From the NCBI GenBank assembly GCA_012441205.1, contig GCA_012441205.1_4705.1: a DNA stretch of 64,000 nucleotides. One strand, written 5' to 3'. Under the pieces are notes generated by a model, which was not told the DNA's origin, ran no database searches, and worked only from the letters and a program-made list of their open reading frames with translations. Of this stretch, positions 2,984-56,841 are shown piece by piece; the stretch's first letter is position 1; each line of letters starts with the position of its first letter. The DNA is from a phage. The position numbers and the translations under genes are program-made.

Positions 2984-3013
2984 CCCTCCCACCTCCACAT
3001 GGGAGAGGGAGGG
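2984..3013 (-). terminator. hairpin CCCTCCC/GGGAGGG followed by U-run on minus strand
   Basis: 7-bp GC stem, T-rich tract downstream in transcript sense. Confidence 0.5.
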
Positions 3014-3026
3014 CTATTCGTGTTTA

Positions 3027-3389
3027 TTACTCTATGCTGTCTTCTTCAACACAATCCTCTTCGGAACCGTCGAACGTTTTCTGCACTGCGGTGGTATCCC
3101 AGTTGGCAGCGTAATCAGCCATCGCTTCGCGCAGTGCTTCTTCACCAGCATCACCAGCCAGGTCAAGCACAACCAACCCTTGCGCGACGTTTTGAGCGAC
3201 AGTATCAATAACGGTCGCATCTTCTTCAAAACTACGTACCGGTTCAATGGTGCCTACATCAACAGCATAGTTCGTGGTCGCTGTAAGCACGGCGACTTGT
3301 AGCGCGTCGCTATCTTCATCATGCAATGCTGCTTCAATACCGATTGGACGGGCCAGTTCTTGCAGTGTTAATTTGCGAATTAAGTTCAT
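3027..3389 (-). CDS. hypothetical acidic protein
   Basis: 120-aa ORF, GAGGAAA RBS, followed by hairpin and T-run. Confidence 0.5.
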   Translation of the reverse strand: MNLIRKLTLQELARPIGIEAALHDEDSDALQVAVLTATTNYAVDVGTIEPVRSFEEDATVIDTVAQNVAQGLVVLDLAGDAGEEALREAMADYAANWDTTAVQKTFDGSEEDCVEEDSIE

Positions 3390-3411
3390 TATGTTTTTCC
3401 TCAGGTGAATG

Positions 3412-3762
3412 TTAGCAATCGTTTAAAACTTTTTCGATACGATGGTTGACGAGTTCATTGAACGACTCTTCAACTTGTTCGATAATTTCATCAACGTCGA
3501 TATCTAATTGTTGGGGTTGGATAACATGCTCTTTCATGGTTTCTAGCCAGTATTCGGCTTTAACCATAACGTTAGCTACTTGTTCGACCTGGCTGCGTAT
3601 GTCGACGATCTGGCAGTCAGGATTTTTAATATCGATGATGTGCCCGTGCTGATTGATAAAGCCTAGCTTATTCGACGCCTTTACCGCATCGCGGGCAAGT
3701 TCTTGCAAGATTAAATTATTAACGTAGTTCACTGCTACGGAACGATTTTCGTTATCACTCAT
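3412..3762 (-). CDS. hypothetical protein
   Basis: start moved to internal ATG (MSDNEN...) preceded by AAGAGGA; the longer ORF N-terminus overlaps the upstream hairpin. Confidence 0.45.
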   Translation of the reverse strand: MSDNENRSVAVNYVNNLILQELARDAVKASNKLGFINQHGHIIDIKNPDCQIVDIRSQVEQVANVMVKAEYWLETMKEHVIQPQQLDIDVDEIIEQVEESFNELVNHRIEKVLNDC

Positions 3763-3840
3763 ACCAGGGATCCTCTTTAAGTCATCACATTCTAGTGTTA
3801 AGCAGTTAAAATAAACCGTCCCTTTAATCAGCATAAACAT

Positions 3841-3869
3841 CCTCCTCCCACCACAGGGGCAGGAGGAGG
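3841..3869 (-). terminator. hairpin CCTCCTCC/GGAGGAGG
   Basis: 8-bp stem immediately after gene stop. Confidence 0.45.
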
Positions 3870-3880
3870 CGTAATATGCA

Positions 3881-4291
3881 TCAGAAAGGAGGGCGATCTT
3901 TAAATTCTAGCAACGTGTCTTCGAAGCAAGCGATAAGTTCAGACTGCAATTCGGTACGGCCTTGTTCACCGAAGAGTTCCAGCAACATTAACCCCCGAGC
4001 GGTCTTCGTAGCAACCTCTTCGCAGATGCGGAGATCGCGAACTTCATCATCGCCGACATCTTTACGTAACTGCGCTGCAATGGGCTTAAGATTACCGTTT
4101 TCATCGTGTTCGTCACGAAATGCATCATAAGCCGCATCGATGTTCGCGATCCGTGTCAACCCTTCAGAATCCCGCCAGTCTCGATATAATCCAAGCAGAC
4201 GGTTATGATTCTTCGTTTTGACGTTCGGTGCTGGAAGGTTGCGCAACAGATGTGGTGTAATCATTGCTATCACGCTATCCGAATGATCCAT
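3881..4291 (-). CDS. hypothetical protein
   Basis: 136-aa ORF followed by CCTCCTCC/GGAGGAGG hairpin. Confidence 0.5.
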   Translation of the reverse strand: MDHSDSVIAMITPHLLRNLPAPNVKTKNHNRLLGLYRDWRDSEGLTRIANIDAAYDAFRDEHDENGNLKPIAAQLRKDVGDDEVRDLRICEEVATKTARGLMLLELFGEQGRTELQSELIACFEDTLLEFKDRPPF

Positions 4292-4302
4292 CGTATACCT
4301 CG

Positions 4303-6471
4303 TTAGCTTTCGCAGTCATCTGCGTCGATGATTTGTCCGCCAGCAACGTTCAGTTGATGATACAGAATCCTCAACGCACGGTTGCCGCCAATGGGATACT
4401 TCTCGAAGTTGGTCGCAATAGGAATCGCTGACGGTTTATCGGTCGCATAGATGCTTTCAGTGATGCTATCCACCTGTTTTGGATTGTTCGCATAATCCAT
4501 AAAGACGCTAGCAAACCATCCGCCAGCAAAGGCGGTAACTTCGCGATGTTCAGATTCACCGCAGTAACGAGTTGGTTGCTCTTTACCAGGAGAACTGTAT
4601 TTATCGCTATTACTGAGTTTCGACGGTAATCCATGCGCTTGCAGTTTAGGGATGCCCACCGCTGACCAGTCGTTCGCCGTCTTCTCCAACATCATGATGT
4701 ACGTGTCACCGATCGCAATATCGTTCTTGGTTGTCCGCCATTGCCCAGAACGTCCACGATACCGTACAGGACCTTTCTTCAACGGGAACTCACGAATCAG
4801 ATTCTCCATACGTTCTGAACCTGCTGCGATACTGTCCGTCGGGATATAAACTTCCGTACCGTGGCGCTGTACGTACCGTAAATGATCCCATTTATCCTCA
4901 TCCGTGATACAGTATTTTTCAACAACCTGTTCCACGAACTCAGGACTGACGATATAGTAGTAGCGCATCAGTGTGTTCCAAGCGGTCTCCAGATCGCCTG
5001 CATCCATCACCGGTTTCAGTTCACGCATGATCTGATCACCAACACCGTTGATGTATGGCGCATTAACACGACTTAAACTCATCCTTTTGATTACCGTGCT
5101 ATCGTCGAACATAAAGTCCGCAACGTTACCCCATTGGTCAACCGGCATTTCATCGTCTTCCATGATGTCGGTTACGACGAATTTATCACCCGCCATACCG
5201 GTGAATTTAAACCCGATACCCGGAACAACATCGTACGTGTATGTGATGGTCACACGCCAATCATCGAGATTCTCTTTACGGTAATCGCGGGTCGGTAACA
5301 CATGACGTAGCTGTCCGTTAGGATTGCGGATATCAATACCGTGTTCAGCATCAGCCAGGTTCAACCACCACATCACCGTTTGATGATGACGTATCGGCGT
5401 ACCAACGCGTTCACGTTCGTACTTACGAACAGCATCCTGAATTCGGGTGTAAAGCAAACCAATCGCGTTCTCGTATTTCAGGAATTGACGATACGGAGGA
5501 CGCATCTTCTCTTCCATCATAATCGCACGCTCGCGGGCTTGACGTCCAGAACGACGATGTCGGTCGCTGACAACATCGATATCCGTTACACGCGCATTCG
5601 GTTCCGCGTAAGTGAGATCATCGTAAACATAATCCACACGCTGAAGGTTACACGTCATCATGTCAACAACGCTGAGGATAGGATCGATTTCGCGCGTTGC
5701 TGCAAGTAACCCATCCTTACGAATACGCTCACCGTTCTCGGGTATTGCTTGATATACCTCATCATCACCGTAGAGATTGATTGGGTATCGTGATTTACCT
5801 GATGTGATCGTTCGCTTCTCAATGCCGGTACTGGTGAAATGCTTCAATACACCACGACGGGCAACACCACCATCCTCGATACACTGATAGAAGCTACCGA
5901 AACACACTTTGCAATCGCGACCGTAACCCCACTCGCGCGTTTCTTGATTGATCGCTGGGCTTTCCATCAAACGAGAATACCGCGGTACGATCTGGCCTCG
6001 ACGAAGGGAATGGAACAAGTTGGTTGGTCGAAAACGGAAACCATACTGCTGATGCATGATGTGATGCTCAGGCACTTCAAGCAAGCGTAGCTCGTGACGG
6101 TTACCATCCTCTTGGTTTTCATACAGCACGTAATGCATCGTGTTTGTTTTGATGCTGTTTGCTGTATGTCCTGGTTGAAACCGCGGAATGATATCTATGA
6201 TGCGAGATTCAACTGGAAACTCTACTGACCAAGTGTTCTGTCCGTACTGGTATTCAATCCCCGTCGTTAGTCGGGACGGTTTCGCATCTTTGATAACCAA
6301 CGCTTGGCTAAGATGTCCACCAAACATCGCAGCGCGCTGTGCTGAGTTATAATGCAGTAGCCCGTTAAGTCCAGTCCCTACGCCAGTATACTCCTGTTTA
6401 ATGGGAATGATTTTACCTTCAGCGATTGCCTGCTTCACAGATTCATAAAGAGGTTTTTCTTTATAATGCAT
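4303..6471 (-). CDS. RNA polymerase beta C-terminal-like subunit (split RNAP)
   Basis: AQRAAMFGGHLSQALVIKDAKPSRLTTGIE matches beta ANRALMGANMQRQAVP...KPLVGTGME; GMAGDKFVVTD...EDDEMPVD matches the GDKMAGRHGNKG...EDMPY region; C-terminal RYCGESEHREVTAFAGGW matches RFGEMEVWALEAYGAAY; start set at MHYKEKPL with AGGAAG RBS. Confidence 0.7.
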   Translation of the reverse strand: MHYKEKPLYESVKQAIAEGKIIPIKQEYTGVGTGLNGLLHYNSAQRAAMFGGHLSQALVIKDAKPSRLTTGIEYQYGQNTWSVEFPVESRIIDIIPRFQPGHTANSIKTNTMHYVLYENQEDGNRHELRLLEVPEHHIMHQQYGFRFRPTNLFHSLRRGQIVPRYSRLMESPAINQETREWGYGRDCKVCFGSFYQCIEDGGVARRGVLKHFTSTGIEKRTITSGKSRYPINLYGDDEVYQAIPENGERIRKDGLLAATREIDPILSVVDMMTCNLQRVDYVYDDLTYAEPNARVTDIDVVSDRHRRSGRQARERAIMMEEKMRPPYRQFLKYENAIGLLYTRIQDAVRKYERERVGTPIRHHQTVMWWLNLADAEHGIDIRNPNGQLRHVLPTRDYRKENLDDWRVTITYTYDVVPGIGFKFTGMAGDKFVVTDIMEDDEMPVDQWGNVADFMFDDSTVIKRMSLSRVNAPYINGVGDQIMRELKPVMDAGDLETAWNTLMRYYYIVSPEFVEQVVEKYCITDEDKWDHLRYVQRHGTEVYIPTDSIAAGSERMENLIREFPLKKGPVRYRGRSGQWRTTKNDIAIGDTYIMMLEKTANDWSAVGIPKLQAHGLPSKLSNSDKYSSPGKEQPTRYCGESEHREVTAFAGGWFASVFMDYANNPKQVDSITESIYATDKPSAIPIATNFEKYPIGGNRALRILYHQLNVAGGQIIDADDCES

Positions 6472-6502
6472 AGGACTTCCTATTATCGAATTGAGGTACG
6501 TC

Positions 6503-6856
6503 ATGTCTAACACGCCCCTGAACGACTTTCTTAAGACAAACCCCGATGACCTCATCCACGATCTTGATTTCAGGAACGTTGTTGAGATGCATCTGGAATA
6601 TTTCAAAAATGCCGGACTGGTCTCTACGATAGACATACCACCCGAACGCGCCTACGAATTCGATGGTAACTTTTATGGATTGTGTCGTGTTCTGCTCGGT
6701 GAGGGCAGTGAACCAATGCACTGGATAACCATGAGACTCAATGGTTATCGCGACCCTACGGAATACACCGCCGATGTTCTAACCATGAAGATTGTCGATA
6801 CAAGCGCAATCAACACATTAAAACAGCAGTATCGCACAATCCACTACAGCGCTTAA
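6503..6856 (+). CDS. hypothetical protein
   Basis: plus-strand ORF, ATG 7 nt after GAGG; divergent from the beta-C-like gene. Confidence 0.45.
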   Translation: MSNTPLNDFLKTNPDDLIHDLDFRNVVEMHLEYFKNAGLVSTIDIPPERAYEFDGNFYGLCRVLLGEGSEPMHWITMRLNGYRDPTEYTADVLTMKIVDTSAINTLKQQYRTIHYSA

Positions 6857-6861
6857 GATAA

Positions 6862-6890
6862 CCCTCCCACAGCGTAAAGCGTAGGGAGGG
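6862..6890. terminator. hairpin between convergent genes (CCCTCCC/GGGAGGG)
   Basis: 7-bp stem between plus-gene stop 6856 and minus-gene stop 6922. Confidence 0.45.
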
Positions 6891-6921
6891 CATTTATGCC
6901 GTCGTTCGATGACTTAATACA

Positions 6922-8202
6922 TCAGAAACGATTTACAGTACGTCCTGTCCACGCGCTCAGGATGTTGTTACGTTCCATCTCAGCACGACGACGTAAACCG
7001 TTTGGCGACTGCGGTGCTTGCGGCATCCCCCATCCAGCCGGTTGCATACCCATGCCCGGCCAAGCAGCGTTATTGAACATCGTACCGTTACGTTCCGCAA
7101 CACGGTTCATCAGCGCATCAAACGTGCTATTACCTGCCGGTTGGTTACCGCCGCTTTCCCACTGATTAGGTTGGACAGGTGCGGTTTTACCTAACAGGTT
7201 ATCGATCACACTGCCTGTTGAAGCAGGACGCGGTTGCATACCTTCATGTGCAGCTGCTGATGGATTTGGCTTAACCGTCGGCTGCGGACGACTGTTCAGC
7301 GTTACACCCATGTTGTATTTCGCTGGCGGAATCTGACCACGATGTTGATTGATCGGTTCAAAATCCTCAACCCAGGTAACATCACAGTAGCCGTTCTCTT
7401 TACCGTCGTACTTATCACCAAACAGTTTGATGAGATTGTTCAGCGGTTCCATCAGCTTAGCGAAGCTGTGGATAAGACAATCGAAATACGGAGCATGAGG
7501 ATCGCTTGACCCAGCGTTGTACGTTTCACTTACCTCACCCGCGTGTGGGATAACGTACTCAACCAGGTTTCTCAGCATGTTAAGATCTTTCTTGGAAATC
7601 TCAACACCACACCAGTACGTTTTCTTATCTTTCGTGCTGATATGTTCTTCTTCCATGAACGGGAAAGTAACGACCGCAACACGGGTCATCTTCTTACCCA
7701 TGTAGGTTGCACCAGTACGACGAAGATAAATTTTGGACAGTGTATACGGCGTATCACGTTTCAGCCAAACGGTGACCAGTTTACCCAGGGTCGTTAATGT
7801 TTTATCGCTGGCGTCCGCAAGGATGTTGAAGAACTCTTTTTGCTTCGGTCCGAAACGTTTTGCTTCTTTAGGATTGATTGCGGTTTCAACCATCCAAATC
7901 AGCATGGAGCATAGCGTGGCGTTAAAACGAACAACCATCGCACGACGCAGGAACTGAAGTACTTCCGATTCGCCGTTCATCACGTCTTCACTTAGCGGAT
8001 GGAACAGCACACGTTCAGCCAGCTGATTTCCGGTACGAACTTCAGAAACCGGCATCAGCAACGGCATGCTTTCCACGGTAGCGGCAACTGCAACAACTTT
8101 ACCATCCCCATCCGTAAAACGATATTCTAATTCGTGGGCGTCATTCTCAAAATAGTTAACGCTCTGTAGTGCTTTGCGATAAGCTTCGATAAGCTTCGAC
8201 AT
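6922..8202 (-). CDS. hypothetical protein with Pro/Gly/Gln-rich C-terminal low-complexity region
   Basis: 426-aa ORF. Confidence 0.5.
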   Translation of the reverse strand: MSKLIEAYRKALQSVNYFENDAHELEYRFTDGDGKVVAVAATVESMPLLMPVSEVRTGNQLAERVLFHPLSEDVMNGESEVLQFLRRAMVVRFNATLCSMLIWMVETAINPKEAKRFGPKQKEFFNILADASDKTLTTLGKLVTVWLKRDTPYTLSKIYLRRTGATYMGKKMTRVAVVTFPFMEEEHISTKDKKTYWCGVEISKKDLNMLRNLVEYVIPHAGEVSETYNAGSSDPHAPYFDCLIHSFAKLMEPLNNLIKLFGDKYDGKENGYCDVTWVEDFEPINQHRGQIPPAKYNMGVTLNSRPQPTVKPNPSAAAHEGMQPRPASTGSVIDNLLGKTAPVQPNQWESGGNQPAGNSTFDALMNRVAERNGTMFNNAAWPGMGMQPAGWGMPQAPQSPNGLRRRAEMERNNILSAWTGRTVNRF

Positions 8203-8229
8203 ATTGTATTTCCTTTTCTTTACGTCAAC

Positions 8230-8251
8230 GGTCCCCCTACAACAGGGGACC
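8230..8251 (-). terminator. hairpin GGTCCCC/GGGGACC
   Basis: 7-bp stem in intergenic gap. Confidence 0.4.
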
Positions 8252-8257
8252 TATGGA

Positions 8258-9844
8258 TTAGAAGTTGCCTTTGGTAGTTACCGCATCCACCAGGTTAAAC
8301 AAATCAACACTCAGCTTGTAAACCTCCTGCTGGCTACGGTTGAGCAGCGGGCTGTATGCAGATGGGTTGATGTTCGGCATGGTGTACGGAATCGGTGCGG
8401 AGCCGTCAACGCTGATCTTGAACTGGCTGTCCAGGAACAGGTTAATCGCGCCGCTCACCATAACCGCATTCGGGTTGTTACCCAACATGGAGGGTAGGAT
8501 ATTGGTAATCATGTCAGAACGCATTTGTTCAGCAGCACGGTTACAATCGTATCCTTTAATGAACGGTACAGCGTCGGTAACCGCAACCGCCCACTGACCT
8601 GGCATGATACCGAGTTCTGGGTGACCATGGTTGTCAGCAATGAAACGGAACGACTCCAACATGCGATACGTCATCGCAGCAGGCATCATTGCAGCAAGCG
8701 ATGAGCAATACAGCGTTGGATAATCGATCACGTCCCAGCTCTGGCTGTCGGTAGGCATCCAACCAAACTCGGTGGTTGCTGATGTACCACGACGAGCTTC
8801 CACATACGGGAATAACGTTAAGACGTCACGGATATGTTCACCGAACATCCGTTTCATGTCAGCCCAACTCAGGCTACCGCTGAAAGCGAATCCTTCATCA
8901 CGCATAATCGCACCGAATACCGGATGCGCAACCAGAGGTTCTTCACGAACAGCTTGAGCGGCTTCCACGTAAATATCCTCGTTCTCTGCGCTACCTGGAT
9001 GAGACCCGCTTTCGTACGTCTGACGAATAGCTCCAACATTATCGAAGGCTTTTCTCAGATAGATGGTTGGGATGTTCGTATCAGCACTAGCTGGTTTGAT
9101 TTTCTCTGTTGCGAAACACATAGCTGCTTCCACACCACGGAAAACCGGTTCCGGTTGCGGTGGATAGGATGTACGATGAACCACATCAGCGTAGGCTGGA
9201 TCGAACTGCTGCATCACGTTCTGCATGGCTGGGTCCATGAACTGGTTATCAAAACCACCATTACCTACCCAACGTGCTGTTGATGCATAGGTCAGCGTAT
9301 CCTGAACACGAGTACTGAACTGAACATCACGATTAACAGGGTCGTATGCGCCGGTCAACAGGTTCGTTGCGTCCATCGGGGTTGCACGAACGATTTGCTT
9401 ACCGAACATATCCGTCGTGGTTGTTTCGGTTACCTGGATTACGTTCGTGAAGAAGAACACCAGTTCGTTCGGCAGATCGATAGCACGCGTTGTAAACGCA
9501 TCGAGACTTACAGAATGGTCGGTGTATCCAGAAATGTAATGGACGCGCTTGGTTCCTGGTGCAAGGGCCAAGGATTCTTCTACAGCCATCATGAAATGGA
9601 AACGGCGTGTGCCCCAACCATTCGCAATCTCCGAAACCCCCTCAGGTTCTGCAGACTGCTGCAACAACCCGGTTGCAAGCTTATTGATTGCTGATGGTGT
9701 TGTTGCCGTACCGAACCGCGTCGTGTTAATAAAGTCTTCGATGCTACGCATGCTATCTGCGTGGAATCGTAGCGGACGACGCTGTACGTTGTTGTACGGT
9801 GCGGTTTCAACCATCAGGATTTCACGAACATTCATCGGGATCAT
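8258..9844 (-). CDS. hypothetical protein
   Basis: 528-aa ORF; its start abuts the stop of the upstream gene. Confidence 0.5.
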   Translation of the reverse strand: MIPMNVREILMVETAPYNNVQRRPLRFHADSMRSIEDFINTTRFGTATTPSAINKLATGLLQQSAEPEGVSEIANGWGTRRFHFMMAVEESLALAPGTKRVHYISGYTDHSVSLDAFTTRAIDLPNELVFFFTNVIQVTETTTTDMFGKQIVRATPMDATNLLTGAYDPVNRDVQFSTRVQDTLTYASTARWVGNGGFDNQFMDPAMQNVMQQFDPAYADVVHRTSYPPQPEPVFRGVEAAMCFATEKIKPASADTNIPTIYLRKAFDNVGAIRQTYESGSHPGSAENEDIYVEAAQAVREEPLVAHPVFGAIMRDEGFAFSGSLSWADMKRMFGEHIRDVLTLFPYVEARRGTSATTEFGWMPTDSQSWDVIDYPTLYCSSLAAMMPAAMTYRMLESFRFIADNHGHPELGIMPGQWAVAVTDAVPFIKGYDCNRAAEQMRSDMITNILPSMLGNNPNAVMVSGAINLFLDSQFKISVDGSAPIPYTMPNINPSAYSPLLNRSQQEVYKLSVDLFNLVDAVTTKGNF

Positions 9845-9845
9845 T

Positions 9846-11432
9846 TTATTTTTTTCCTCTTAAATTTACTACGTGTTCATTTAATCGAACAACTAATTGC
9901 ACAAGCTGCTGACGGATATCTGCTGGACAAAGCATCAATCCTTTACGGTCAGCTGGGACTTTCTCAAGGATTTCCGGGCCTGCTGCTGAAACATCCCAAT
10001 CCCATTCACAAAACGCATCGGCCACCATGTTAATACCGACAACCGGTAAAGTTGTACGTTCATCTTCATACATGGCGTGTGGATACAATTTATTGACAGT
10101 AATGATCTCCTGTGGTTTTAATTGGTGGATAATCTGATAAACATCGTCGCGTTTAACCTGGATACCTACGGTAAGCGCTGCCAGTTGAGGAAAACCCCAA
10201 TGGTCTAACAAGCACGCTGCGATGGCTAACGCTTTTGCCTGATGCACGGCTTCAATCGGTGCCAGACTTCTCGCCGGAAGATGGCTATCAAGCAACCATT
10301 GTGCCAGTGCTCGGCATCCGCGGTTGATTGGTTTTAACTCAACGGTGTCATCGTGTTTAGCGTACGTGTATCCATCGTAACGTTTTGCGATACGCGCATA
10401 CATGTCTTCAACTTTACCGTAAGGTGCCGTTTCGTCGACGTCGTGCAACACACGTTCCATCTGGGTAAGATAGGCGATGTCAAGAATGAGTACACGCGGT
10501 GAACGTTTATCTTTCACCATCAACGCATCGATCACGCCTTGACTGTCTTCATCTTGCGCGTTCCCTCGTGGGGTTTTCTCACGAATCGGTCCACTGAAAC
10601 GTCGTTCCGTACAAAGGTTATTCACATAGCTAAAGATTAACGTTACCAGATGCGTACAACTCACTAACACCCCATCTTTAACGACAGGCTGTACGGCTTG
10701 GTCCAAGTCGCGTACGGCGAGACGGCGGACGATGGCTTGTGAACGCAACCAGCCAGGCACTTTCTCCGTCGACATGTAATCCACGGTCATCGACAGCGTG
10801 ATCTTTTTATCACCCGTTTGTGCGCGGATATAGTCTTCCAGTCGGTCGTAAGCGGCGATATCGTGAATGCGTGTTTTATACATCAACGACATAGCCACTT
10901 CTTCTTTACGAACCGTTCCGTACGTTTTCCCTGCGTCAATCAGAAACTCTGCCCAAATCGGCACCATCAGACGGACGTAGATCGCTAACGCCGTTAACTC
11001 AACGTAATCATTTCGTAAATAGGTTTTCTCAGGAATATCATCCTCACCTAATGTTGTTTTCATGTCCGGCGGTAATTTTACCCAACCTGGGGTATTACAC
11101 AACGCCAGAATCTCTTCGTACACAACCGGTTTGTAAATTTCACCAACAGCGCGACTCAACTCCTCCATTTGTTGTTGTGGAGCAATGTAGTTATCCATCG
11201 CTTCACGTGCTTTAACGAACCCTTCGAAGATGTCGTCAATTCGACGTGGGTTCTTTTGTTCTATCCAGGCGAGATACTTGTTAATCTCCCGCATCTGATT
11301 GCTAGCCATATCCCCATCAATCTTGATGTAACCCTGGCCTGAAAATTCCACAGTACGTCCATCACGGTGTTTGATGAGATAGTGATCCAGCTTTTCTTTT
11401 CCTTGCGTCGTAATGACGGGCACTATGTGCAT
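9846..11432 (-). CDS. hypothetical protein (downstream of a TATATTACC promoter-like element)
   Basis: start moved to ATG at 11432 (MHIVPV...) preceded by AAGAGG; the annotated N-terminal extension runs into the structured intergenic region. Confidence 0.5.
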   Translation of the reverse strand: MHIVPVITTQGKEKLDHYLIKHRDGRTVEFSGQGYIKIDGDMASNQMREINKYLAWIEQKNPRRIDDIFEGFVKAREAMDNYIAPQQQMEELSRAVGEIYKPVVYEEILALCNTPGWVKLPPDMKTTLGEDDIPEKTYLRNDYVELTALAIYVRLMVPIWAEFLIDAGKTYGTVRKEEVAMSLMYKTRIHDIAAYDRLEDYIRAQTGDKKITLSMTVDYMSTEKVPGWLRSQAIVRRLAVRDLDQAVQPVVKDGVLVSCTHLVTLIFSYVNNLCTERRFSGPIREKTPRGNAQDEDSQGVIDALMVKDKRSPRVLILDIAYLTQMERVLHDVDETAPYGKVEDMYARIAKRYDGYTYAKHDDTVELKPINRGCRALAQWLLDSHLPARSLAPIEAVHQAKALAIAACLLDHWGFPQLAALTVGIQVKRDDVYQIIHQLKPQEIITVNKLYPHAMYEDERTTLPVVGINMVADAFCEWDWDVSAAGPEILEKVPADRKGLMLCPADIRQQLVQLVVRLNEHVVNLRGKK

Positions 11433-11489
11433 AACAACCTCTTTTCGCGGTTCCCTGTTAAAACGTCTTCTGTGACGTCTACCACAAAG

Positions 11490-11520
11490 GTAATATAAGC
11501 GTGAATAATTTTGGATTCCG
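11490..11520 (-). promoter_or_regulatory. candidate early promoter (minus-strand TATATTACC with A/T-rich upstream)
   Basis: plus-strand ggtaatata at 11489-11497, shared context with three other copies; about 55 nt upstream of the gene start at 11432. Confidence 0.45.
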
Positions 11521-11618
11521 GCTGAGTTATCGCTCAGCATGCAAGGCATCCCGCCGAAGCGAGACACCTTGCACTAACGGAAAATATTCGCGTTACCTTC
11601 TGAATCGAAGACTCAGAA
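11518..11618 (-). terminator. cluster of three stem-loops downstream of the SSB-like gene
   Basis: inverted repeats gctgag/ctcagc, gcaagg/ccttgc, ttctga/tcagaa. Confidence 0.35.
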
Positions 11619-11636
11619 TGCGATGCTAAAGCATGA

Positions 11637-12428
11637 TTAGAACGCTAAGCCATCAAAGGCTACGGACGGATCATCGTCGTCATTTGCGCTTGGCGCATCC
11701 CAACGGGTATCAGGGGCCGCTGAAGCCGAACTTGATGCGTTAGAGTTACCGTTGTACTGGCCGTTACCAGCATTACGGTTACCGCCGCCGTTGTTATTGT
11801 TACGGTTATAGCTATTGTTGCCACCATTACTTACGCTACGGCTTTCACCGTCGAAATTGGTTGCGAGGATGCTCGGCAACACTGCGCGATGAATACGTAC
11901 AAATTCCAACGCACAAAGCGGAGAAACAACCCCGATCTGTAAAGGTTGCCCAGACTCATCAACCAGAGCGTGGAAACGCGGTGGCTTGAATACGAATTGG
12001 ATGTTCGGTTTTTGGTACGCGGTTACAGCGATATATACCGAACCATCATCGTTCTTACCAACCCATGTTGTACTTTCGGTAATCTGTTTCTTCTTACCTG
12101 GATTATTGCGATCGTCGATAACCTTTTCGTTCTTCATCGCAAAACGTTGGCCTGGCTTACCCTTAGCAACCTGCTCGAGGATCGCAAGCAGGTTATAGAA
12201 CGCGTATGAACTCATGCGTGCCCAAATGCTTTCGGCGCGACCCTGCTGGTCTTTACGACCTGTATAAACCGTGATGCGCGGTTGATTCTTAGCAACGCTA
12301 ATTTTCAATGAGGGGATTGAATTACCGCCCTCAACCTTTTCGTCCGCCCACAGTTTCCAGTTGTTGTCGTCATACGCTGTAGGAATAATGTTTCCTTGTG
12401 GTTTACTGCCCGAATTCCAATTGCTCAT
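11637..12428 (-). CDS. hypothetical protein with SSB-like architecture (Gly/Asn-rich linker, acidic C-terminal tip DDDDPSVAFDGLAF)
   Basis: 263-aa ORF; architecture only, no motif proof. Confidence 0.3.
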   Translation of the reverse strand: MSNWNSGSKPQGNIIPTAYDDNNWKLWADEKVEGGNSIPSLKISVAKNQPRITVYTGRKDQQGRAESIWARMSSYAFYNLLAILEQVAKGKPGQRFAMKNEKVIDDRNNPGKKKQITESTTWVGKNDDGSVYIAVTAYQKPNIQFVFKPPRFHALVDESGQPLQIGVVSPLCALEFVRIHRAVLPSILATNFDGESRSVSNGGNNSYNRNNNNGGGNRNAGNGQYNGNSNASSSASAAPDTRWDAPSANDDDDPSVAFDGLAF

Positions 12429-12501
12429 TTTCAGCCTCGTTACGTAGTGTGAATCAATTTCTGGTTCAGATGATAGTCAATATTAGTTAAAAATTACAGC
12501 C

Positions 12502-13299
12502 TCAGCGGAACATGTCCAACAGAAAACGTTTTGCGAAGGGGTCACGTAACTGGTTGACACCAAAGCGTGTACGGTCTTCCGTTGTTAATGGATTCCACTG
12601 ACTCTGTTTCGCAAGATCTAACAGCATCCTTTTTATTTTCACCGGCCCGCTATTGAACTGTACGGCTTGGTCACCGAACGTTCCCAATGTCATCTTTGTA
12701 AATGGAAGGTTCGCAACCTCTGGACGATCCCCACCAGTAAGTTTGGTCGACCACTGATGTTTTCGTTTCAAGGTTCCGGTATGGCTTTCTACCAAAATAA
12801 GTTCACCAAAACCGGTTCTTGCCAACAAGTCAGAAACATAGTGCGTGGTGATATACGATGTCTTGGTTATCGTGGGTAATTTACAATCCATCGATTCGAT
12901 ATTAGGGAGTCGATCTACAGACGCCATCAACCCACGATAAAGTGTAGCGAGTCCTTTTTGTTTTTCGGTGTGTGGCTCCTTATGTATAGCGTGCGGATAA
13001 ACACGCTTTATTGACGCATAGGTTGGCGCATATATCCGCAAACGAATATGGGGAATGAGTTCATTCACCAACTGCCTTAGCTGCAGTAACTCGTTTTGAA
13101 AATCCCCTGTTATCATCGATAACGGTAATTTATGTTGTTCAACGTCTTCAAAGCTTTCAACGAAATTGCGTGCTAAAGTACGCAGGTTGAACAACCAATC
13201 CATCGGTGTTTCTGGCTGTTGCTGTACTGCTGATAGTGTTGCTGACGTCCCTACCGATAAAGGATAATCACCTAACGTGCGGGCGTACATATTGCTCAT
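12502..13299 (-). CDS. hypothetical protein
   Basis: start set at MSNMYA with AAGGAG RBS 9 nt upstream. Confidence 0.45.
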   Translation of the reverse strand: MSNMYARTLGDYPLSVGTSATLSAVQQQPETPMDWLFNLRTLARNFVESFEDVEQHKLPLSMITGDFQNELLQLRQLVNELIPHIRLRIYAPTYASIKRVYPHAIHKEPHTEKQKGLATLYRGLMASVDRLPNIESMDCKLPTITKTSYITTHYVSDLLARTGFGELILVESHTGTLKRKHQWSTKLTGGDRPEVANLPFTKMTLGTFGDQAVQFNSGPVKIKRMLLDLAKQSQWNPLTTEDRTRFGVNQLRDPFAKRFLLDMFR

Positions 13300-13318
13300 A
13301 CCCCACAACTCCTTCTTA

Positions 13319-14461
13319 TCATGGCAACGTATCAAGCCAAGCAGAAACCTTTAAGGCATCAACGTTCGGGTATTTATTACGAATGCGTTCGACCAACAAA
13401 CGCTTAACGTTGTCCTTTGTCAAGTCTCCACCTTTCTCGATAACGTTATTGACAAAACTGTTCTTTAATAGCGACTGGTTGTTCTTGGCGTCCGTTTTAA
13501 TTGACCAAACGAAGCCTGGATACAAAGAAGGGATAGAACGAAACGTTTTCGCCGCATCGTCTTCCTTATCGCAGCGTATTCGGATATGATCACCCTTCTT
13601 CAATGGAGCCAATTCCCGTTCCAACACACGGACAATTTCATCTCCAACAAGACCATGCAGTTTTATCGTCTTGTAGACATCTGCTTTCTTGTTTTCAACA
13701 AATTCCCACTGGTCGTTAAACGTTTCCGTTAACATATAACGGAGATACCCTTTTGGACCTTCTTCACCGTGCGCCAAGCGACCGAACGAACCGCCAACCA
13801 TGATACGTCCTTTCTGGGATTGTAAGTGAATATGTCCGCTCACGATCCATCCCTGGGTCTTCTCCACCATTGCGTTATACGCATCGCTGCTATGAACACA
13901 TGTCGCTTTTAACGCTTCTGGTGGAAGCTGATATTCAAACGCACCGTGCATCAGAATGAAGTCCGGCGATCCCTTCTCATCAATAAGTCGGTTCACGGCT
14001 GACAACGTCACATCCGGGTCGTGGCTGTAGTTATCTGGAAGATAAAGTACTTTTAAACCAAAGTCTTCATCAACCATGCAGAGGTCATCGTAATAACGAA
14101 CTTTCGCTCCTATCTCCATGACCTCGTTCTGTTCAACGAACCACTGACTTTGCTTCTGGTCGTGTAAGTTGGTACCCTCAAGAAAGATCAACGTAATATC
14201 GTGTTTTCTTGCATACCGTAACAACCAGGTACCCCAGGCACGAACAGCAACCACGTCACTCGTCACAAACGTCGTGATACGATCGAAGACATCACCACTG
14301 AACGTAATCACATCAAGCAGCGCAGGATCTTCTTTTGTAATGTAATAACGCAGCTGGCTAATCAGGTTTACTGTCGGTGTTTGACGATGGATAAAGTGAA
14401 TATCCGACAAGTTGATTCCACGTAATACCCCAGGCGTTTTATTTCGACTGAAGTCTCGCAT
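13319..14461 (-). CDS. calcineurin-like metallophosphoesterase, SbcD/Mre11-type nuclease
   Basis: ordered motifs LSDIH, FSGDVFD, GTNLHD, LMHGA, GHIH. Confidence 0.7.
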   Translation of the reverse strand: MRDFSRNKTPGVLRGINLSDIHFIHRQTPTVNLISQLRYYITKEDPALLDVITFSGDVFDRITTFVTSDVVAVRAWGTWLLRYARKHDITLIFLEGTNLHDQKQSQWFVEQNEVMEIGAKVRYYDDLCMVDEDFGLKVLYLPDNYSHDPDVTLSAVNRLIDEKGSPDFILMHGAFEYQLPPEALKATCVHSSDAYNAMVEKTQGWIVSGHIHLQSQKGRIMVGGSFGRLAHGEEGPKGYLRYMLTETFNDQWEFVENKKADVYKTIKLHGLVGDEIVRVLERELAPLKKGDHIRIRCDKEDDAAKTFRSIPSLYPGFVWSIKTDAKNNQSLLKNSFVNNVIEKGGDLTKDNVKRLLVERIRNKYPNVDALKVSAWLDTLP

Positions 14462-15631: not shown

Positions 15632-15644
15632 GAGGAACTCCTCT

Positions 15645-16094: not shown

Positions 16095-16213
16095 TCCGTT
16101 CTCCTCAAGCTTTTTCATTTCATAGAGTGGTGGAAATTCGTAGAAAGTTACAAAAATAAAAAAGAATGGGCAGCCCCTCCCCACCCGAAGGTAGGGAGAG
16201 ACCGCAAATATAC

Positions 16214-16678: not shown

Positions 16679-16771
16679 TTTACTATCCTCGGATTTCGTT
16701 AGGATTTAATTTCCAATATAAGGGCAATGTGATATGCCTTATACAGTCGATTGATGTTGTACATCACTTAA

Positions 16772-16800
16772 GTAATATAGCCGTGAAAAATGTTGGATTA
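16772..16800 (-). promoter_or_regulatory. candidate early promoter (TATATTAC element)
   Basis: plus-strand aagtaatatagccgtgaaaaatgttgg; about 95 nt upstream of the membrane-protein gene. Confidence 0.4.
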
Positions 16801-17659: not shown

Positions 17660-17677
17660 GGGCAGCCATTAAATGGA

Positions 17678-46700: not shown

Positions 46701-46843
46701 ATGTAATTCCTTTATTACGGCATATAAGAAAACGGGTTAAGCACACAGATTTACGCATAATTGTAATATTTTACGTTATGCCTATGACATTGTGTCACGT
46801 GTGCAATTATGTCATACAATTTCCTTAAATTAAGGAGAGTTCC

Positions 46844-49847: not shown

Positions 49848-49884
49848 CCTTCCTTCCCCGGCCTTGACGGCTAGGGAAGGAAGG
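49848..49884. terminator. bidirectional terminator after the tube gene
   Basis: 11-bp stem ccttccttccc/gggaaggaagg flanked by an A-run on one side and a T-rich tract on the other. Confidence 0.55.
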
Positions 49885-49896
49885 TTTATGGTTTAT

Positions 49897-50436: not shown

Positions 50437-50897
50437 TACTCAAACTCCTTATTCCAAAACTCGATTAATGAATCGAGCTGTTCCTTACTGGTTATCTCAC
50501 CTCCCCTAACAAAATGAAATCGTTCTTGAATGGCGATCTTTTCAAGGATATCGGTAAGCAAATGACGGTGACAGAAATTTCCTGCAGGACAATAACACCC
50601 TAACACCACAACCGGATGGGAGAATAAAGCCAACCATTCCGGTGTATGATCAACAAAGCTTTTGCGCATAAGCGCGTAGTAGCCTATGGTATATTCATCC
50701 TCGGTTAACGTTTTTGATTTGATTCCTGTAACAAGTTCCCATGAAGGTGCGAAGAGTGGGTTACCTGTTTTCACCGTCGTGTCCAGTAGAAACGCTCGTG
50801 TGTCTGAAAGCCAACGATATTTGGCTAATTGAAGGGTGTATAAAAACACAGCGCTAACCCCAAAGGATAAAAAATAAAACCTTGACATAACCACCAC
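50436..50897 (-). CDS. hypothetical protein with CYCPAGNFCHRH motif (DUF488-like)
   Basis: 153-aa ORF; motif resemblance only. Confidence 0.4.
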   Translation of the reverse strand: MVVMSRFYFLSFGVSAVFLYTLQLAKYRWLSDTRAFLLDTTVKTGNPLFAPSWELVTGIKSKTLTEDEYTIGYYALMRKSFVDHTPEWLALFSHPVVVLGCYCPAGNFCHRHLLTDILEKIAIQERFHFVRGGEITSKEQLDSLIEFWNKEFE

Positions 50898-50953
50898 CGC
50901 AACCCCATACAGGGCTACGGTGGGGTCATACAGAGAGACGTGTTAAGTTACAA

Positions 50954-52369: not shown

Positions 52370-52471
52370 CTTTTAAATTCCTACTTAACAATAAAGTTCA
52401 TATACGGCGTATGTATCCGTAGAATAATGGGTTCTGGTAAGATCTTACATCAAAATGACGGCATAAAAAGT

Positions 52472-52499
52472 ACCTCCTTACCCACATGGGTAAGGAGGT
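52472..52499 (-). terminator. hairpin acctccttaccc/gggtaaggaggt
   Basis: 12-bp stem, 4-nt loop. Confidence 0.5.
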
Positions 52500-54271: not shown

Positions 54272-54272
54272 A

Positions 54273-54983
54273 TCACCCCCTCAGAATCGCTTCTGTTTCG
54301 CTGATCGTATCCGCAGGATAAACCAAACTACTATCGATTGCGTTATTCACGTAACCACCCATTAAGTTGGTGATGGTGTTTGTACCACTATCGATAATGT
54401 TTCGTAATCCGATATCGATGGCTTTTAACGTGCTGCGTTCCTCATCCGAAAGCAAACGCCATGCTCGACGACGATCGTTGGGGTCACGTGTGGTGATAGA
54501 AGCCAGAACAGAATAGATGCTGCTATCCGCATTCAGTTTAACGCCTGCCAATTTCGCTGACGTGTAGAGCAGCTGATATTTTTCTTTCTCAGTGTACCAC
54601 CATGGCACTTTACCGAGCGTATAGATCTCGTTATACATCAGCCATGGGAAAGAGTTTCGCATCACGACATCGGTTGACACCAACACCGTGTCACCGGGAA
54701 GAAACACAAACTCATAAAACGGCTGGCCATCCATGGTAATTTCACGGATGTCAGACGGGTCGATATGGAGCTGGGTCAATGCGTGGCTGACACCATACTG
54801 ACCATCGGGAAGAATAATCGGGCAGCACGCACAAACCCGGTTCTCACTCCCGATGATAGATAAACCCAATCCCTCGTAACGGACGGGTGTCAGAATCGAA
54901 CACCCGCCACGAGTAACAACAGATTTATCTTCTTGTATGTCCCAGTCCGCAAGCACCGCAGCACCGTTGCGGACAAGCGCCAT
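54273..54983 (-). CDS. hypothetical protein
   Basis: 236-aa ORF. Confidence 0.5.
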   Translation of the reverse strand: MALVRNGAAVLADWDIQEDKSVVTRGGCSILTPVRYEGLGLSIIGSENRVCACCPIILPDGQYGVSHALTQLHIDPSDIREITMDGQPFYEFVFLPGDTVLVSTDVVMRNSFPWLMYNEIYTLGKVPWWYTEKEKYQLLYTSAKLAGVKLNADSSIYSVLASITTRDPNDRRRAWRLLSDEERSTLKAIDIGLRNIIDSGTNTITNLMGGYVNNAIDSSLVYPADTISETEAILRG

Positions 54984-56507
54984 TTACACCTCGCTAATCT
55001 GGATAACGTAAAGCTGCTGGGCCACGTAATCGGTGGTCAGATGCATCGTTGCGATGGTCGCTGCTTCGAACACCGTGAGTTCAGGACGTTCACGCATAAT
55101 CAAATCGATCTCATCGATGAGACGGTTAACGCCTTGAGCGTCTTCGTGATGCATGGTTTTCACGTACAGCGTACGGAAATACTGCTGGAAGTTAGCTACG
55201 TCGGTATCGGTAAGGGTAGCAACTTCACCACGTACGATTTCCATAACCTTCTTACGGGTATCTTCATCGAGGTCCACTGTAATCAGGTCAGCAAATACGC
55301 CCTGCAATGCCAACGCGTATGCACGTAAGCGGTTTGCGGCCTGCTGACTGGCTTTCATGTTGATGTAGTTACGGTAATGCTGCATGAAGCCTGCACCGTT
55401 AGCCAACAGCTCATCTTTACTGATGAGTTCACGTTCTAACAGGACAGCTGCGGTCAGTGCTTCCGGCGAACCACCTTCTTGCAGATAACCCATGTAGACA
55501 TCTGCGTTAACGAAAATCGTCATCGTTGACGCATCTTCAGCACGTTGAATCTGAGAAGCCGACGGTGCAGAAAGAATCAGCTCACCACGCTCCATACGCA
55601 GGATACGATCACGACCGACGCGGGCCATCCCGTTGATCGCCGCAGCGCGAGCTTGTTGCATTTTAGCGCGGTAGTTTTCAAGCATCATGTCGTTGCCGTC
55701 CTGGATATCTTCCAGCAGGTTAACGGCCCACATATAGCAGAGGAATGCAGGAGTTGCCGCAGCGCGGGAACCGTGGAATGCAACGTTATCGCTATCCGGA
55801 TATGTAATCAGATAAGCGGTGTTGTTCGAAGAAGGAGCGGAACCACGGAAGAAATAGTTGTAGATGTCTTCCAGTGCCTGATCGCTCATCCCTTCCGTTG
55901 CTTGCTGTACAAAACGATCCAGGTTTTCATTACCGGTATACAGCAACGTACGCAGCTTATCACCGGTGATAAACGCAAGCTTTCCGGTTGGAGTGAAATC
56001 GTTATTAATCGAAATCAAGCCATTGAGGTCATAATCGCTAACTAAGGCCTGGTACTCTTCGGAGTTATAAAACTCAGGATAGTAACTCAGACTTACTGTC
56101 GGGATCAGTTTCGGTGCCAGGATGATCGAATCGATGCGTTTTTCCAGTTCCGGGTACAGCGCACGGCATTTCGGCAGGATGGTATTACGCGCCAACTCTT
56201 TGGCATACACCACTTTTTCCACCACGTCTTGAACTGCGGTCTGTAAAACTTCATCGTGGATATAAACCTCGCGTTCGCTGGCAGGTGCTACAACGCCATC
56301 TTCGGTTTCATCAAGTGTTTCAGCAACAACCATACGTTCAGCACTAAGCTGCACCAACGCATCCGCGTCTTCCGGCGGCTGGTTCCAGTGCATGGTTTCA
56401 CAAACCGCGGCTAACGGCGTGCCCGGAATGGCTGCGACGATTTGGTTACGTTTGATAAACCCTTCGACAATAGGCTCAACAGCATAAACGGTTTTATTGG
56501 TGATCAT
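54984..56507 (-). CDS. hypothetical protein
   Basis: 507-aa ORF. Confidence 0.5.
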   Translation of the reverse strand: MITNKTVYAVEPIVEGFIKRNQIVAAIPGTPLAAVCETMHWNQPPEDADALVQLSAERMVVAETLDETEDGVVAPASEREVYIHDEVLQTAVQDVVEKVVYAKELARNTILPKCRALYPELEKRIDSIILAPKLIPTVSLSYYPEFYNSEEYQALVSDYDLNGLISINNDFTPTGKLAFITGDKLRTLLYTGNENLDRFVQQATEGMSDQALEDIYNYFFRGSAPSSNNTAYLITYPDSDNVAFHGSRAAATPAFLCYMWAVNLLEDIQDGNDMMLENYRAKMQQARAAAINGMARVGRDRILRMERGELILSAPSASQIQRAEDASTMTIFVNADVYMGYLQEGGSPEALTAAVLLERELISKDELLANGAGFMQHYRNYINMKASQQAANRLRAYALALQGVFADLITVDLDEDTRKKVMEIVRGEVATLTDTDVANFQQYFRTLYVKTMHHEDAQGVNRLIDEIDLIMRERPELTVFEAATIATMHLTTDYVAQQLYVIQISEV

Positions 56508-56740
56508 TACTGCGCTCCCTCCAACGCATTACTACCTACGGGTTCTTTGGTTTCCAGACGGCTGTTTAAGCGCGCAGCAACCGCATCTTCCAATCCCAAC
56601 GGCATAACCTTTTTGTTCACGTCAGGATCGGCGGCATCATTACCAACGGTTTGACGTACGACCTCAGCAACCAACGTTACCGCGTTCGTCAGCGCAACAA
56701 AGCTCGCTGCCCGAGCCGTGTTAAGTTGTTCTTGGTTCAT
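56507..56740 (-). CDS. hypothetical small protein
   Basis: 77-aa ORF, first gene of the operon, downstream of a 20-bp palindrome. Confidence 0.4.
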   Translation of the reverse strand: MNQEQLNTARAASFVALTNAVTLVAEVVRQTVGNDAADPDVNKKVMPLGLEDAVAARLNSRLETKEPVGSNALEGAQ

Positions 56741-56771
56741 TCACTTTTCCTTTTAATGTCAGAGCATCGCA

Positions 56772-56791
56772 TTCTTGACGTACGTCAAGAA
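56772..56791. promoter_or_regulatory. 20-bp perfect palindrome TTCTTGACGTACGTCAAGAA
   Basis: exact inverted repeat between a terminator and the first gene of the 53.5-56.7 kb operon. Confidence 0.4.
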
Positions 56792-56815
56792 GGTACTGCG
56801 TTCAGCGAAATAAAC

Positions 56816-56841
56816 GAGCAGGGGCATGAAGCCCCCTGCTC
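56816..56841 (-). terminator. hairpin after the beta-N-like gene
   Basis: 10-bp stem gagcaggggc/gccccctgctc followed by GUUUAUUUCG. Confidence 0.5.

Follow-up and report, generated by a model that had tools for sequence, protein, structure and literature searches.

The window analysed here, i.e., the whole stretch of 64,000 nucleotides (nt) of phage DNA in contig GCA_012441205.1_4705.1 (assembly GCA_012441205.1), is closely related to Escherichia phage vB_EcoM_Goslar (Goslar), a nucleus-forming jumbo phage (chimallivirus) of E. coli. The first 20 kb have 96.9% identity to Goslar and are without a match in other phage records, and in a full alignment positions 1-18905 and 19283-64000 align to approximately 149.3-214.4 kb of the Goslar genome with identities of 96.7-97.0%. 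The gene map is the Goslar annotation carried over via this alignment; nearly all genes are encoded on the minus strand and they include chimallin (20625-22520, minus strand), tubulin PhuZ, DNA polymerase, terminase, tail sheath and several split RNA polymerase beta/beta' genes. The 97% identity to Goslar along with chimallin, PhuZ and the split beta/beta' genes places the window in a chimallivirus with virion and non-virion multisubunit RNA polymerases. Sigma-70-like promoter matches are fewer than expected (19 in window 1-20000 vs. 32.1 +/- 6.3 in shuffles), which fits a phage that does not rely on the host polymerase. Chimallin searches of the phage collection revealed no close relative of Goslar; the best of the remaining chimallins are about 23% identical. 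The gaps between the genes carry G+C-rich hairpins, many of them with a pyrimidine arm of the CCCTCC type followed by a purine arm of the GGGAGG type. Judged from the sequence and by analogy with mapped terminators of related phages, it is highly likely that these hairpins terminate transcription in a Goslar-like chimallivirus and are local instances of the conserved terminator module of the phiKZ type.

An earlier note on the window had described a family of at least twelve intergenic hairpins built from a CCCTCC-type 5' arm and a GGGAGG-type 3' arm, and the eight that it listed are all present to within a few bases (2984-3013, 3841-3869, 6862-6890, 17638-17662, 20575-20598, 23889-23920, 49848-49884, and 52472-52499). 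When arms were counted as a pyrimidine 6-mer with at least four C and, at a distance of 3-30 nt on the 3' side, its exact reverse complement, the window had 12 pyrimidine-first loci, compared to a mean of 0.46 (standard deviation 0.68, maximum 3) in 200 dinucleotide-preserving shuffles. The same count in reverse order gave 3 purine-first loci vs. 0.51 expected, and the strict pattern CCCTCC-N3-20-GGAGGG matched three times in the window vs. 0.00 expected. As the CCCTCC hexamer alone is not enriched in the window (19 vs. 13.4 expected), the non-random part is the pairing of the arms. In the larger sample of the whole Goslar genome, assembled with its 247 coding sequences, the arm count gave 41 pyrimidine-first and 8 purine-first loci; the strong hairpins were 48 pyrimidine-first vs. 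10 purine-first (p = 4.5e-7), and the most stable ones 22 vs. 1. An inverted repeat is identical on both strands, the order of the arms is therefore independent of the transcribed strand, and the order bias is a real property of these loci. The order with the pyrimidine arm on the 5' side is that of the twelve pyrimidine-first loci, whereas the hairpins at 20575-20598 and 41403-41431 are purine-first, and the one closing the range of the earlier note, at 56816-56841 (GAGCAGGGG/CCCCTGCTC), is not of the CCCTCC type. Members that it had not listed are found at 16170-16205, 32379-32403, 35614-35633, 37225-37259, 38725-38753, and 39122-39145. They are generally intergenic, as had been claimed, but 32379-32403 is located within the 3' end of the convergent gene gp232. 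No Rfam family matched the hairpins at gathering score, the sole match in the window being a group I intron at 61435-61821. A sliding 48-nt fold at -13 kcal/mol gave 306 hairpins, mostly meaningless and located within genes, and an exhaustive search of the intergenic gaps was used instead.

This search folded all 38 intergenic gaps of the window and was complemented by a table of the genetic context of each hairpin. The strong hairpins are all located 3' of a stop codon, except one (37219-37264), and on the coding strand the distance from stop codon to hairpin is 0-31 nt for most and 62-196 nt for three. Several hairpins had been noted between convergent genes; it turns out that every one of the five convergent junctions of the window is occupied (gp172/173, gp245/244, gp233/232, gp224/223, and gp217/216), while only one of the five divergent gaps is (37219-37264). 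In Goslar, 93 of the 105 hairpin loci with a folding free energy (dG) of -14 or lower lie 3' of genes, 76 of them between genes in one direction and 17 between convergent genes. A location 3' of genes or between convergent genes is also that of the phiKZ-type motif. The hairpin of the divergent gap is found about 70 nt upstream of gp224 and is far more stable on the plus strand. It could be an attenuator in the 5' untranslated region (short premature transcripts have been reported in phiKZ; PMC10914365) or a stop for antisense read-through before gp225.

The stability of the hairpins on the two strands follows the direction of the flanking genes. At convergent junctions both strands fold equally well, e.g., at 49848 (-27.3/-28.2) and 23889 (-22.0/-23.0). 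At one-directional sites G-U pairs stabilise the sense strand, as at 16170 (-30.5 vs. -12.9), 50889 (-29.1 vs. -18.7), 11539 (-26.5 vs. -15.7), and 26165 (-17.8 vs. -11.9). Of the 15 one-directional hairpins in the window 13 are non-ties, and 12 of these fold more stably on the sense strand; Goslar-wide, 53 loci favour the sense strand and 19 the antisense strand (Wilcoxon p = 6e-5). Where the stems of the window differ clearly from those of Goslar by substitution (at 16170, 17638, and 50889), G-C or G-U pairing is preserved on the sense strand alone; other differences between the two phages in the hairpins are mostly in loops or inner loops. Covariation was assessed on 16 aligned paralogous copies of the most stereotyped Goslar subfamily. 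Nine of 16 pairs vary on both sides, the number of cells with changes on both sides is 33 compared to 11.9 +/- 3.2 in shuffles (none of 500 shuffles reached 33), and 88.7% of the cells are paired, a share that falls to at most 60.5% once the partners are shifted by 1-3 columns. In the main stem most of the compensatory changes run from C-G to U-A, and the 5' arm thereby remains largely pyrimidine and the 3' arm purine. A cruciform or triplex acting at the DNA level was considered and rejected, the arms being inverted and not mirror repeats and many stems being stabilised by G-U wobble on one transcribed strand only. In two hairpins the interior is exactly reverse-complemented between the window and Goslar, namely a 15-nt block at 49848-49884 (CGGCCTTGACGGCTA vs. 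TAGCCGTCAAGGCCG) and the loop of 52472-52499 (ACAT vs. ATGT), which suggests inversion or template switching across the inverted arms.

The sequence that follows the stem is not the one expected for a textbook terminator. Several of the hairpins had been described as followed by U-runs, which in window 1-20000 applies to 16170 and 3841, whereas the usual tail is TTTATGCYGT and not a U-tract. A scan of window 1-20000 for stems with a T-run behind them (at least 5 T in 8) was unenriched (20 sites vs. 18.4 +/- 4.5 expected), the same two hairpins were the only family members that it flagged, and most members of the family lack a canonical U-tract. The tails on the sense strand instead read TTTATGCCGC (17638), TTTTTATGCCGTC (52472), TTTTTTATGCCGTC (26165), TTATGCCGT (30208), TTTATGCCGTC (6862, plus strand), and TTTATGCTG (3841); 2984 has a shorter cTATG, as does 38725 on either strand. 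The hairpins at 6862 (plus strand) and at 17638, 26165, 30208, and 52472 (minus strand) have an exact TTATGCCGT or TTATGCCGC behind them, and the composite pattern CCYCC...GGRGG...TATG occurs nine times in the window vs. 0.06 expected. In an unbiased count of 6-mers in the sense-strand 3' flanks of strong Goslar hairpins TTATGC ranked first, being present in 17 of 68 flanks vs. 0.37 expected (p = 1e-23), and the aligned consensus of these flanks is TATG-C-Y-G-T. TATGCYG has 86 sites in Goslar, 32 of them intergenic. Approximately 30 of these 32 are found directly behind a hairpin with a dG of -17 or lower, mostly 27-60 nt past a stop codon, whereas the copies in coding regions are without a hairpin. 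The arrangement of a stem followed by YTTATKYYGT is therefore that of the phiKZ-type motif, although 8230, 11539, and 39122 are without the box. Both strands have the box at convergent junctions, where the module is a long palindrome, e.g., GCATA-TTCCCTCCTCCTTCCC-ttac-GGGTTGGAGGAGGG-TTATGC. One-directional sites keep only the downstream copy of the box, which indicates that the box is more than an extension of the stem. The same module is also found at both linear ends of the Goslar record (1-40 and 237240-237290), where it is followed by TTATGCCGTCAAGCAAAAAA; this suggests either that the linear record begins within or beside a terminator, or that there is a short terminal repeat.

In phiKZ, nanopore mapping of transcript ends has identified 133 termination regions, called from the drop in read-through (PMC10914365), and 61 terminators share the motif 5'-BCCYCCCCHWWDGGGRRGGBYTTATKYYGT-3' (Putzeys et al., 2024, microLife, PMC10914365). 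The G+C-rich stem-loops of the window, with a CCYCC(CC) 5' arm and a GGGRRGG 3' arm, correspond to this motif, and mapped phiKZ terminators such as T012 (ACATAATGCCCTCCCGCAATGGGAGGGCTTATGCTGTT) and T018 (GACATAATGCCCTCCCATTGCGGGAGGGCTTATGCCATT) in the preprint supplement closely resemble the modules of the window. For twelve phiKZ terminators the nominal RNA ends are about 3-8 nt past the G+C core, i.e., in or just after the box, with an accuracy of only about 2 nt. As the phiKZ sequences were machine-read from a PDF table of the bioRxiv supplement and contain small errors (T013, for instance, is garbled), these offsets are approximate. The two phages have in common the pyrimidine 5' arm (CCYCC), the purine 3' arm (GGRGG) and TTAT(G/T)YYGT directly after it, an upstream CATAA that often completes a palindrome, the placement after genes and between convergent genes, and a chimallivirus genome that encodes its own RNA polymerases. 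They differ in that the phiKZ stems are 7-9 bp and those of the window 9-16 bp, that the loops of the window are 4 to 15 nt and often contain an inner second helix or a 2x2 UU/AA internal loop, and that the tail is here more sharply TTATGC(C/T)GT. The window phage is also a very distant relative with E. coli as host, its chimallin being about 25% identical to that of phiKZ over 60% of its length. In 201phi2-1, 132 terminators have been mapped, and the main motif A (n = 59) “strongly resembles” the phiKZ motif according to the authors; when placed in a terminator trap, eight 201phi2-1 terminators showed strong activity in uninfected P. chlororaphis (PMC11512511). Motif A, alone or with motif B, is similarly common to many mapped terminators of this chimallivirus and includes bidirectional cases. 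Five motifs were separated in 201phi2-1, whereas the window has one continuum plus a few UUCG-loop hairpins. Rho-independent terminators resemble the modules of the window in having a G+C-rich hairpin just past the stop codon and A-rich and T-rich flanks that let symmetric versions act both ways, but they have a U-tract of 7-9 nt where the window has UUUAUGCYGU, and the arms in the window are strongly biased to homopyrimidine and homopurine.

The module extends to other genera, as seen in stretches of about 41 kb around the chimallin gene of three distant relatives. Klebsiella phage Eowyn has GGGAGG/CCCTCC hairpins, 11 of them purine-first and 3 pyrimidine-first, many with GGCATAA upstream and TTTATGCCG downstream. 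In Erwinia phage RAY 5 hairpins are purine-first and 1 is pyrimidine-first, with TTATGCCGT on the 3' side here too. Salmonella phage SA002 has G+C-rich hairpins that differ in arm sequence but likewise have TTATGCCG or TTATGCTG behind them. A hairpin with TTATGCCG is found in Eowyn, RAY, and SA002 alike. The order of the arms in Eowyn and RAY is thus mostly opposite to that in Goslar and phiKZ, whereas the tail is kept in all. In the sequences compared the tail box is the most conserved part of the module, a purine/pyrimidine make-up of the arms is frequent without being universal, and each lineage has its own arm order.

Along the window, the hairpin CCCTCCC...GGGAGGG at 2984-3013 (pyrimidine-first, minus strand) lies 13 nt past the gp168 stop and has the minus-strand tail aacTATG (dG -20.4 sense vs. 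-18.9 antisense). The module at 3829-3869 (minus strand, stem 3841-3869) is CCTCCTCC...GGAGGAGG, also pyrimidine-first, with the tail atgTTTATGCTG and a dG of -21.6 sense vs. -16.9 antisense; the hairpin begins 11 nt past the gp170 stop and ends 78 nt ahead of the annotated gp169 start. Between the convergent genes gp172 (plus) and gp173 (minus) a bidirectional CCCTCCC...GGGAGGG occupies 6862-6903, with the tail caTTTATGCCGTC on the plus strand and TTATC on the minus strand. GGTCCCC...GGGGACC at 8230-8251 (minus strand), 6 nt past the gp174 stop, is one of those without a TATG box. A strand-specific hairpin of 16 bp with a UUCG loop, not of the CCTCC type, is located at 11539-11574 (minus strand), 62 nt past the stop of gp176 (ChmC); its dG is -26.5 sense vs. 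-15.7. A function of the hairpins as ChmC binding sites was considered and rejected, as an eCLIP study found no motif and binding peaks downstream of start codons. At 16170-16205 (minus strand), 8 nt past the gp182 stop, CUCUCCCUACC-UUCG-GGUGGGGAGGG contains G-U pairs and has the tail ccattcTTTTTTATTTTTG, with a dG of -30.5 sense vs. -12.9 antisense. The pyrimidine-first CCCTCCCCGC...GCGGGGAGGG at 17628-17662 (minus strand, stem 17638-17662) is 15 nt past the gp184 stop, and the ATG in its tail is the annotated gp183 start. The purine-first GGGAGGGAGG...CCTCCCTCCC at 20575-20598 (minus strand, tail TTATACGTCC) follows the chimallin stop by 26 nt, and CATCCTCCC-AA-CCC gtaa GGG-AA-GGGAGGATG at 23889-23920, which belongs to the stereotyped Goslar subfamily, is bidirectional and separates the convergent gp245 (plus) and DNA polymerase gene gp244 (minus).

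Further along, a UUCG-loop hairpin with arms not of the CCTCC type (26150-26192, stem 26165-26192, minus strand, tail cTTTTTTATGCCGTC) is located 75 nt ahead of the DNA polymerase start, and GAGCCTGTCC-UUCG-GGGCAGGCTT at 30199-30231 (minus strand) has its box directly 3', with the Shine-Dalgarno sequence (SD) and start of gp236 21 nt past the stem. The pyrimidine-first CCTCCCTCG...CGAGGGAGG at 32379-32403 is on the plus strand, 13 nt past the stop of gp233 (plus), with the tail TATTTGCCGT. The gp227-gp228 gap (35614-35707, minus strand) contains two hairpins, CTCTCC...GGAGAG at 35614-35633 and CCGTCTCGAG...CTCGAGACGG at 35684-35707. The hairpin of the divergent gp225/gp224 gap (37219-37264) is CCTTCC...GGAAGG; its dG is -21.1 on the plus strand vs. 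-11.9, and cAATGCCGTCC follows it on the minus strand. A bidirectional CCTCCTCTGGG...CCCAGAGGAGG at 38725-38753 lies between the convergent gp224 (plus) and gp223 (minus) with a cTATG tail on either strand, and CTCCCCG...CGGGGAG at 39122-39145 (minus strand), 14 nt past the terminase (gp222) stop, is without a TATG box. The 13-bp purine-first stem CGATGGAGGGTGC...GCACCCTCCATCG at 41403-41431 (minus strand) is 10 nt past the gp221 stop and leaves the terminase SD (GAGGAG) outside. The bidirectional CCTTCCTTCCC...GGGAAGGAAGG at 49848-49895, the interior of which is inverted relative to Goslar as described above, lies between the convergent gp217 (plus) and gp216 (minus) and has the plus-strand tail TTTATGGTTTA. 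The strand-specific ACCCCACCGUAGCCC...GGGGUUGCGGUGGUGGUU at 50886-50930 (minus strand) is 26 nt past the gp214 stop and is followed by ATG (dG -29 to -32 sense vs. about -18). At 52457-52499 (minus strand, stem 52472-52499), ACCTCCTTACCC...GGGTAAGGAGGT with the tail acTTTTTATGCCGTC ends 102 nt ahead of the gp213 start, and the hairpin at 56816-56841 (minus strand) directly follows the gp207 stop and has the tail gTTTATTTCG. The Goslar annotation labels only three of the approximately twenty such sites in the window as putative terminators (26150-26192, 30199-30231, and 56816-56841), all with arms not of the CCTCC type.

The window also contains group I introns. Two tandem copies of about 370 nt that resemble a group I intron are found at 18609-19292 (minus strand) between gp185 and an RNA polymerase beta' gene; they form direct repeats with a spacing of 368-376 nt, and the score against Rfam RF00028 is 30 bits for either copy (E about 1e-5), which is under the gathering score. 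At the corresponding spot (NC_048170 168235-169645) Goslar has an HNH endonuclease gene and an annotated group I intron that are absent from the window. The intron at 61435-61821 (minus strand), which scores 57.8 bits and so exceeds the gathering score, lies between the gp207 and gp206 reading frames and is annotated in Goslar as well.

Position, strand asymmetry, covariation and homology to the mapped terminators of phiKZ and 201phi2-1 all support the proposal, made in part by the earlier note, that the hairpins terminate transcription. The architecture of a hairpin plus box is already known from phiKZ, and the window phage adds another case. In such a module the nascent RNA would fold into a G+C-rich stem from the CCYCC-type pyrimidine arm and the GGRGG-type purine arm, and transcription would end in or just after the (T)TTATGCYGT box directly 3' of the stem. 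At convergent ends a symmetric palindrome, (ACG)GCATAA-hairpin-TTATGC(CGT), could serve both strands, and between genes in one direction the G-U pairs would restrict the module to the sense strand. Presumably the polymerase is held up during formation of the hairpin by a weak and short hybrid (UUUAU) with G+C-rich DNA (GCCG) downstream of it, and homopurine and homopyrimidine arms, being unable to pair with themselves, may fold fast and without alternative structures. A number of observations weigh against the hairpins being terminators. Most members are without a canonical U-tract and the standard terminator scan is unenriched; in the absence of the phiKZ data the hairpins would not be called terminators at all. 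The TATG box is lacking from several members (8230, 11539, and 39122), and 37219-37264 occupies a divergent gap with no gene there to terminate. The box contains the late-promoter core TATG of the phiKZ non-virion RNA polymerase (nvRNAP), and a promoter role for some copies is possible, while near-identical copies and flipped interiors also fit a repeat spread by recombination. A search of the literature found no transcript-end study of Goslar.

The conservation of the box base by base across very distant phages suggests recognition by a conserved macromolecule, for which the phage RNA polymerases are the simplest candidates. The late promoter core of phiKZ is 5'-TATG-3' with G at +1, which is necessary but not sufficient and is bound by nvRNAP in a pocket of the beta lobe (Yakunina, 2015; 2026 IUCrJ structure paper). 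It is tempting to speculate, by analogy and with considerable doubt, that TTATGCYGT is a sequence-specific stop signal for the multisubunit RNA polymerases of the phage itself. The elongating enzyme, with the hairpin just extruded, would rebind the non-template TATG in the register used at initiation, pause with the RNA ending near UUAU, and then terminate without a U-tract. The preservation of the box in Goslar, phiKZ, Eowyn, RAY, and SA002 despite chimallins that are about 23% identical fits this proposal, and so do the approximate phiKZ RNA 3' ends in or just after the box. It is weakened by the presence of such terminators also around early genes, which are transcribed by the virion polymerase, and by the ability of the 201phi2-1 terminators to stop the host polymerase. 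Sequence-specific termination signals are used by other viruses, e.g., UUUUUNU of vaccinia early genes and the class II signal ATCTGTT of T7. The analogy is functional, a short conserved virus-specific sequence marking the stop for a virus-encoded RNA polymerase; these signals act without a hairpin, whereas the box in the window is always behind one.

The hairpins could in principle be elements of RNA processing or stability, the 3' ends being made by an endonuclease cut in the UUAUGCYGU box or by exonuclease trimming up to the stem, and the hairpin serving to protect exported mRNA instead of stopping the polymerase. The missing U-tract after most stems and the sequence-specific conservation of the tail across distant genera, which suggests recognition by a macromolecule, would agree with this, and 3'-end mapping by itself cannot separate termination from processing. 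The 201phi2-1 terminators, those bearing the motif included, nevertheless strongly cut downstream expression in the trap in uninfected cells (PMC11512511), and a phage nuclease is therefore not required. With the phiKZ sites called from a drop in read-through (PMC10914365), and with phiKZ early promoters located 20-40 nt behind such hairpins as at boundaries of transcription units, processing is an unlikely explanation. A second possibility is that the tail box is a promoter and that the hairpin plus TATGCCGT make up a terminator-promoter cassette, from which transcription of the next gene would start anew. TATG is the late-promoter core of the phiKZ nvRNAP, and where genes run in one direction the Goslar box is 20-205 nt (mostly 20-130 nt) upstream of the next start. 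There is also a TATGCCG without a hairpin (46718-46724, minus strand) in the gap that separates gp219 from the divergent tail sheath gene; it precedes the gp219 start by about 20 nt, and in this copy the TATG core may indeed act as a promoter. In phiKZ, however, the starts P012, P016, P017, and P054 are located about 20-40 nt beyond the terminator and P049 at a second TATG, and among the rows of the phiKZ table covered here there is no start at the terminator's own TTATG. Seven Goslar boxes face the 3' end of a convergent gene, and the box is often found on both strands as part of the palindrome. Since the phiKZ starts are elsewhere and boxes face convergent genes, the box belongs to the terminator, and the cassette is very unlikely.

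Translational control was suggested by the earlier note, in which the purine arm was seen as a possible sequestered SD. Hairpins in the mRNAs of the T4 lysozyme gene (e) and soc sequester the SD in this way, with an SD-like GGAGG paired to an anti-SD-like CCUCC, and the purine arm of the window would likewise be the SD of the next gene masked by the pyrimidine arm. The letters of the two arms are indeed those of an SD and an anti-SD, as in the pair ACCUCCUUA/UAAGGAGGU of 52472, the 5' arm of which presumably resembles the 3' end of 16S rRNA and the 3' arm a perfect SD, and at 17638, 2984, and 3841 an ATG is found 0-4 nt past the purine arm. These ATGs are however part of the conserved TATG box, which is present also at convergent ends without a downstream gene, and the impression of an SD is explained by the ATG within the terminator box. 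A separate GAGG, AGGA, or GGAG, clear of the hairpin and 7-14 nt ahead of the annotated start, is found in 13 of 18 pairs of hairpin and downstream gene; for TerL an SD-like motif lies just 3' of the stem, and two downstream genes of the 18 pairs have no SD-like motif. The distance from hairpin to start is mostly 20-255 nt, and in Eowyn and RAY the 5' arm is the purine arm. The only starts that abut the purine arm are those of gp183 (17634) and of gp167 (2884-2979, 32 amino acids), both on the ATG of the TATG box and 3-4 nt off, a spacing that is too short for an SD. A better gp183 start is found 39 nt further on, at an in-frame ATG with its own GAGGA (ACGAGGACAATC ahead of it). Two Goslar genes (ending at 49772 and 117666) similarly have the ATG of the terminator box TTATGC as annotated start. 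The starts of gp183, gp167 and these two Goslar genes are probably mis-called, gp167 being alternatively a spurious small open reading frame. The window thus differs from T4 e and soc in that the paired GGAGG is not the SD of the following gene, that spacing and position are wrong and that the arm order is reversed in related phages, and masking of the SD is highly improbable. Finally, the hairpins might be selfish or neutral palindromes, REP- or MITE-like, that spread between genes without a role in transcription. Several Goslar copies are near-identical including the loop and an internal UU/UU mismatch (27740, 71983, and 237240), and the two exactly inverted interiors could be read in the same way. 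Against this, the hairpins have a fixed placement just past stop codons with each convergent junction occupied, G-U pairing specific to the sense strand, compensatory changes, and a tail kept across genera with about 23% identical chimallins, and the same motif has been shown by experiment to be a terminator in related phages (PMC10914365, PMC11512511); that the family consists of mere repeats is almost certainly wrong.

Read as terminators, the hairpins provide a ready map of the boundaries of transcription units in Goslar-type phages, a main E. coli model of the phage nucleus, and they flag the probable mis-called starts of gp183, gp167 and the two Goslar genes. The module of a hairpin plus TTATGCYGT spans chimallivirus genera that infect Escherichia, Klebsiella, Erwinia, Salmonella, and Pseudomonas. 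The conservation of its tail in the face of an arm order that depends on the genus makes it a clean case for asking how these unusual RNA polymerases terminate, and it raises the possibility of a second role for the TATG promoter core.

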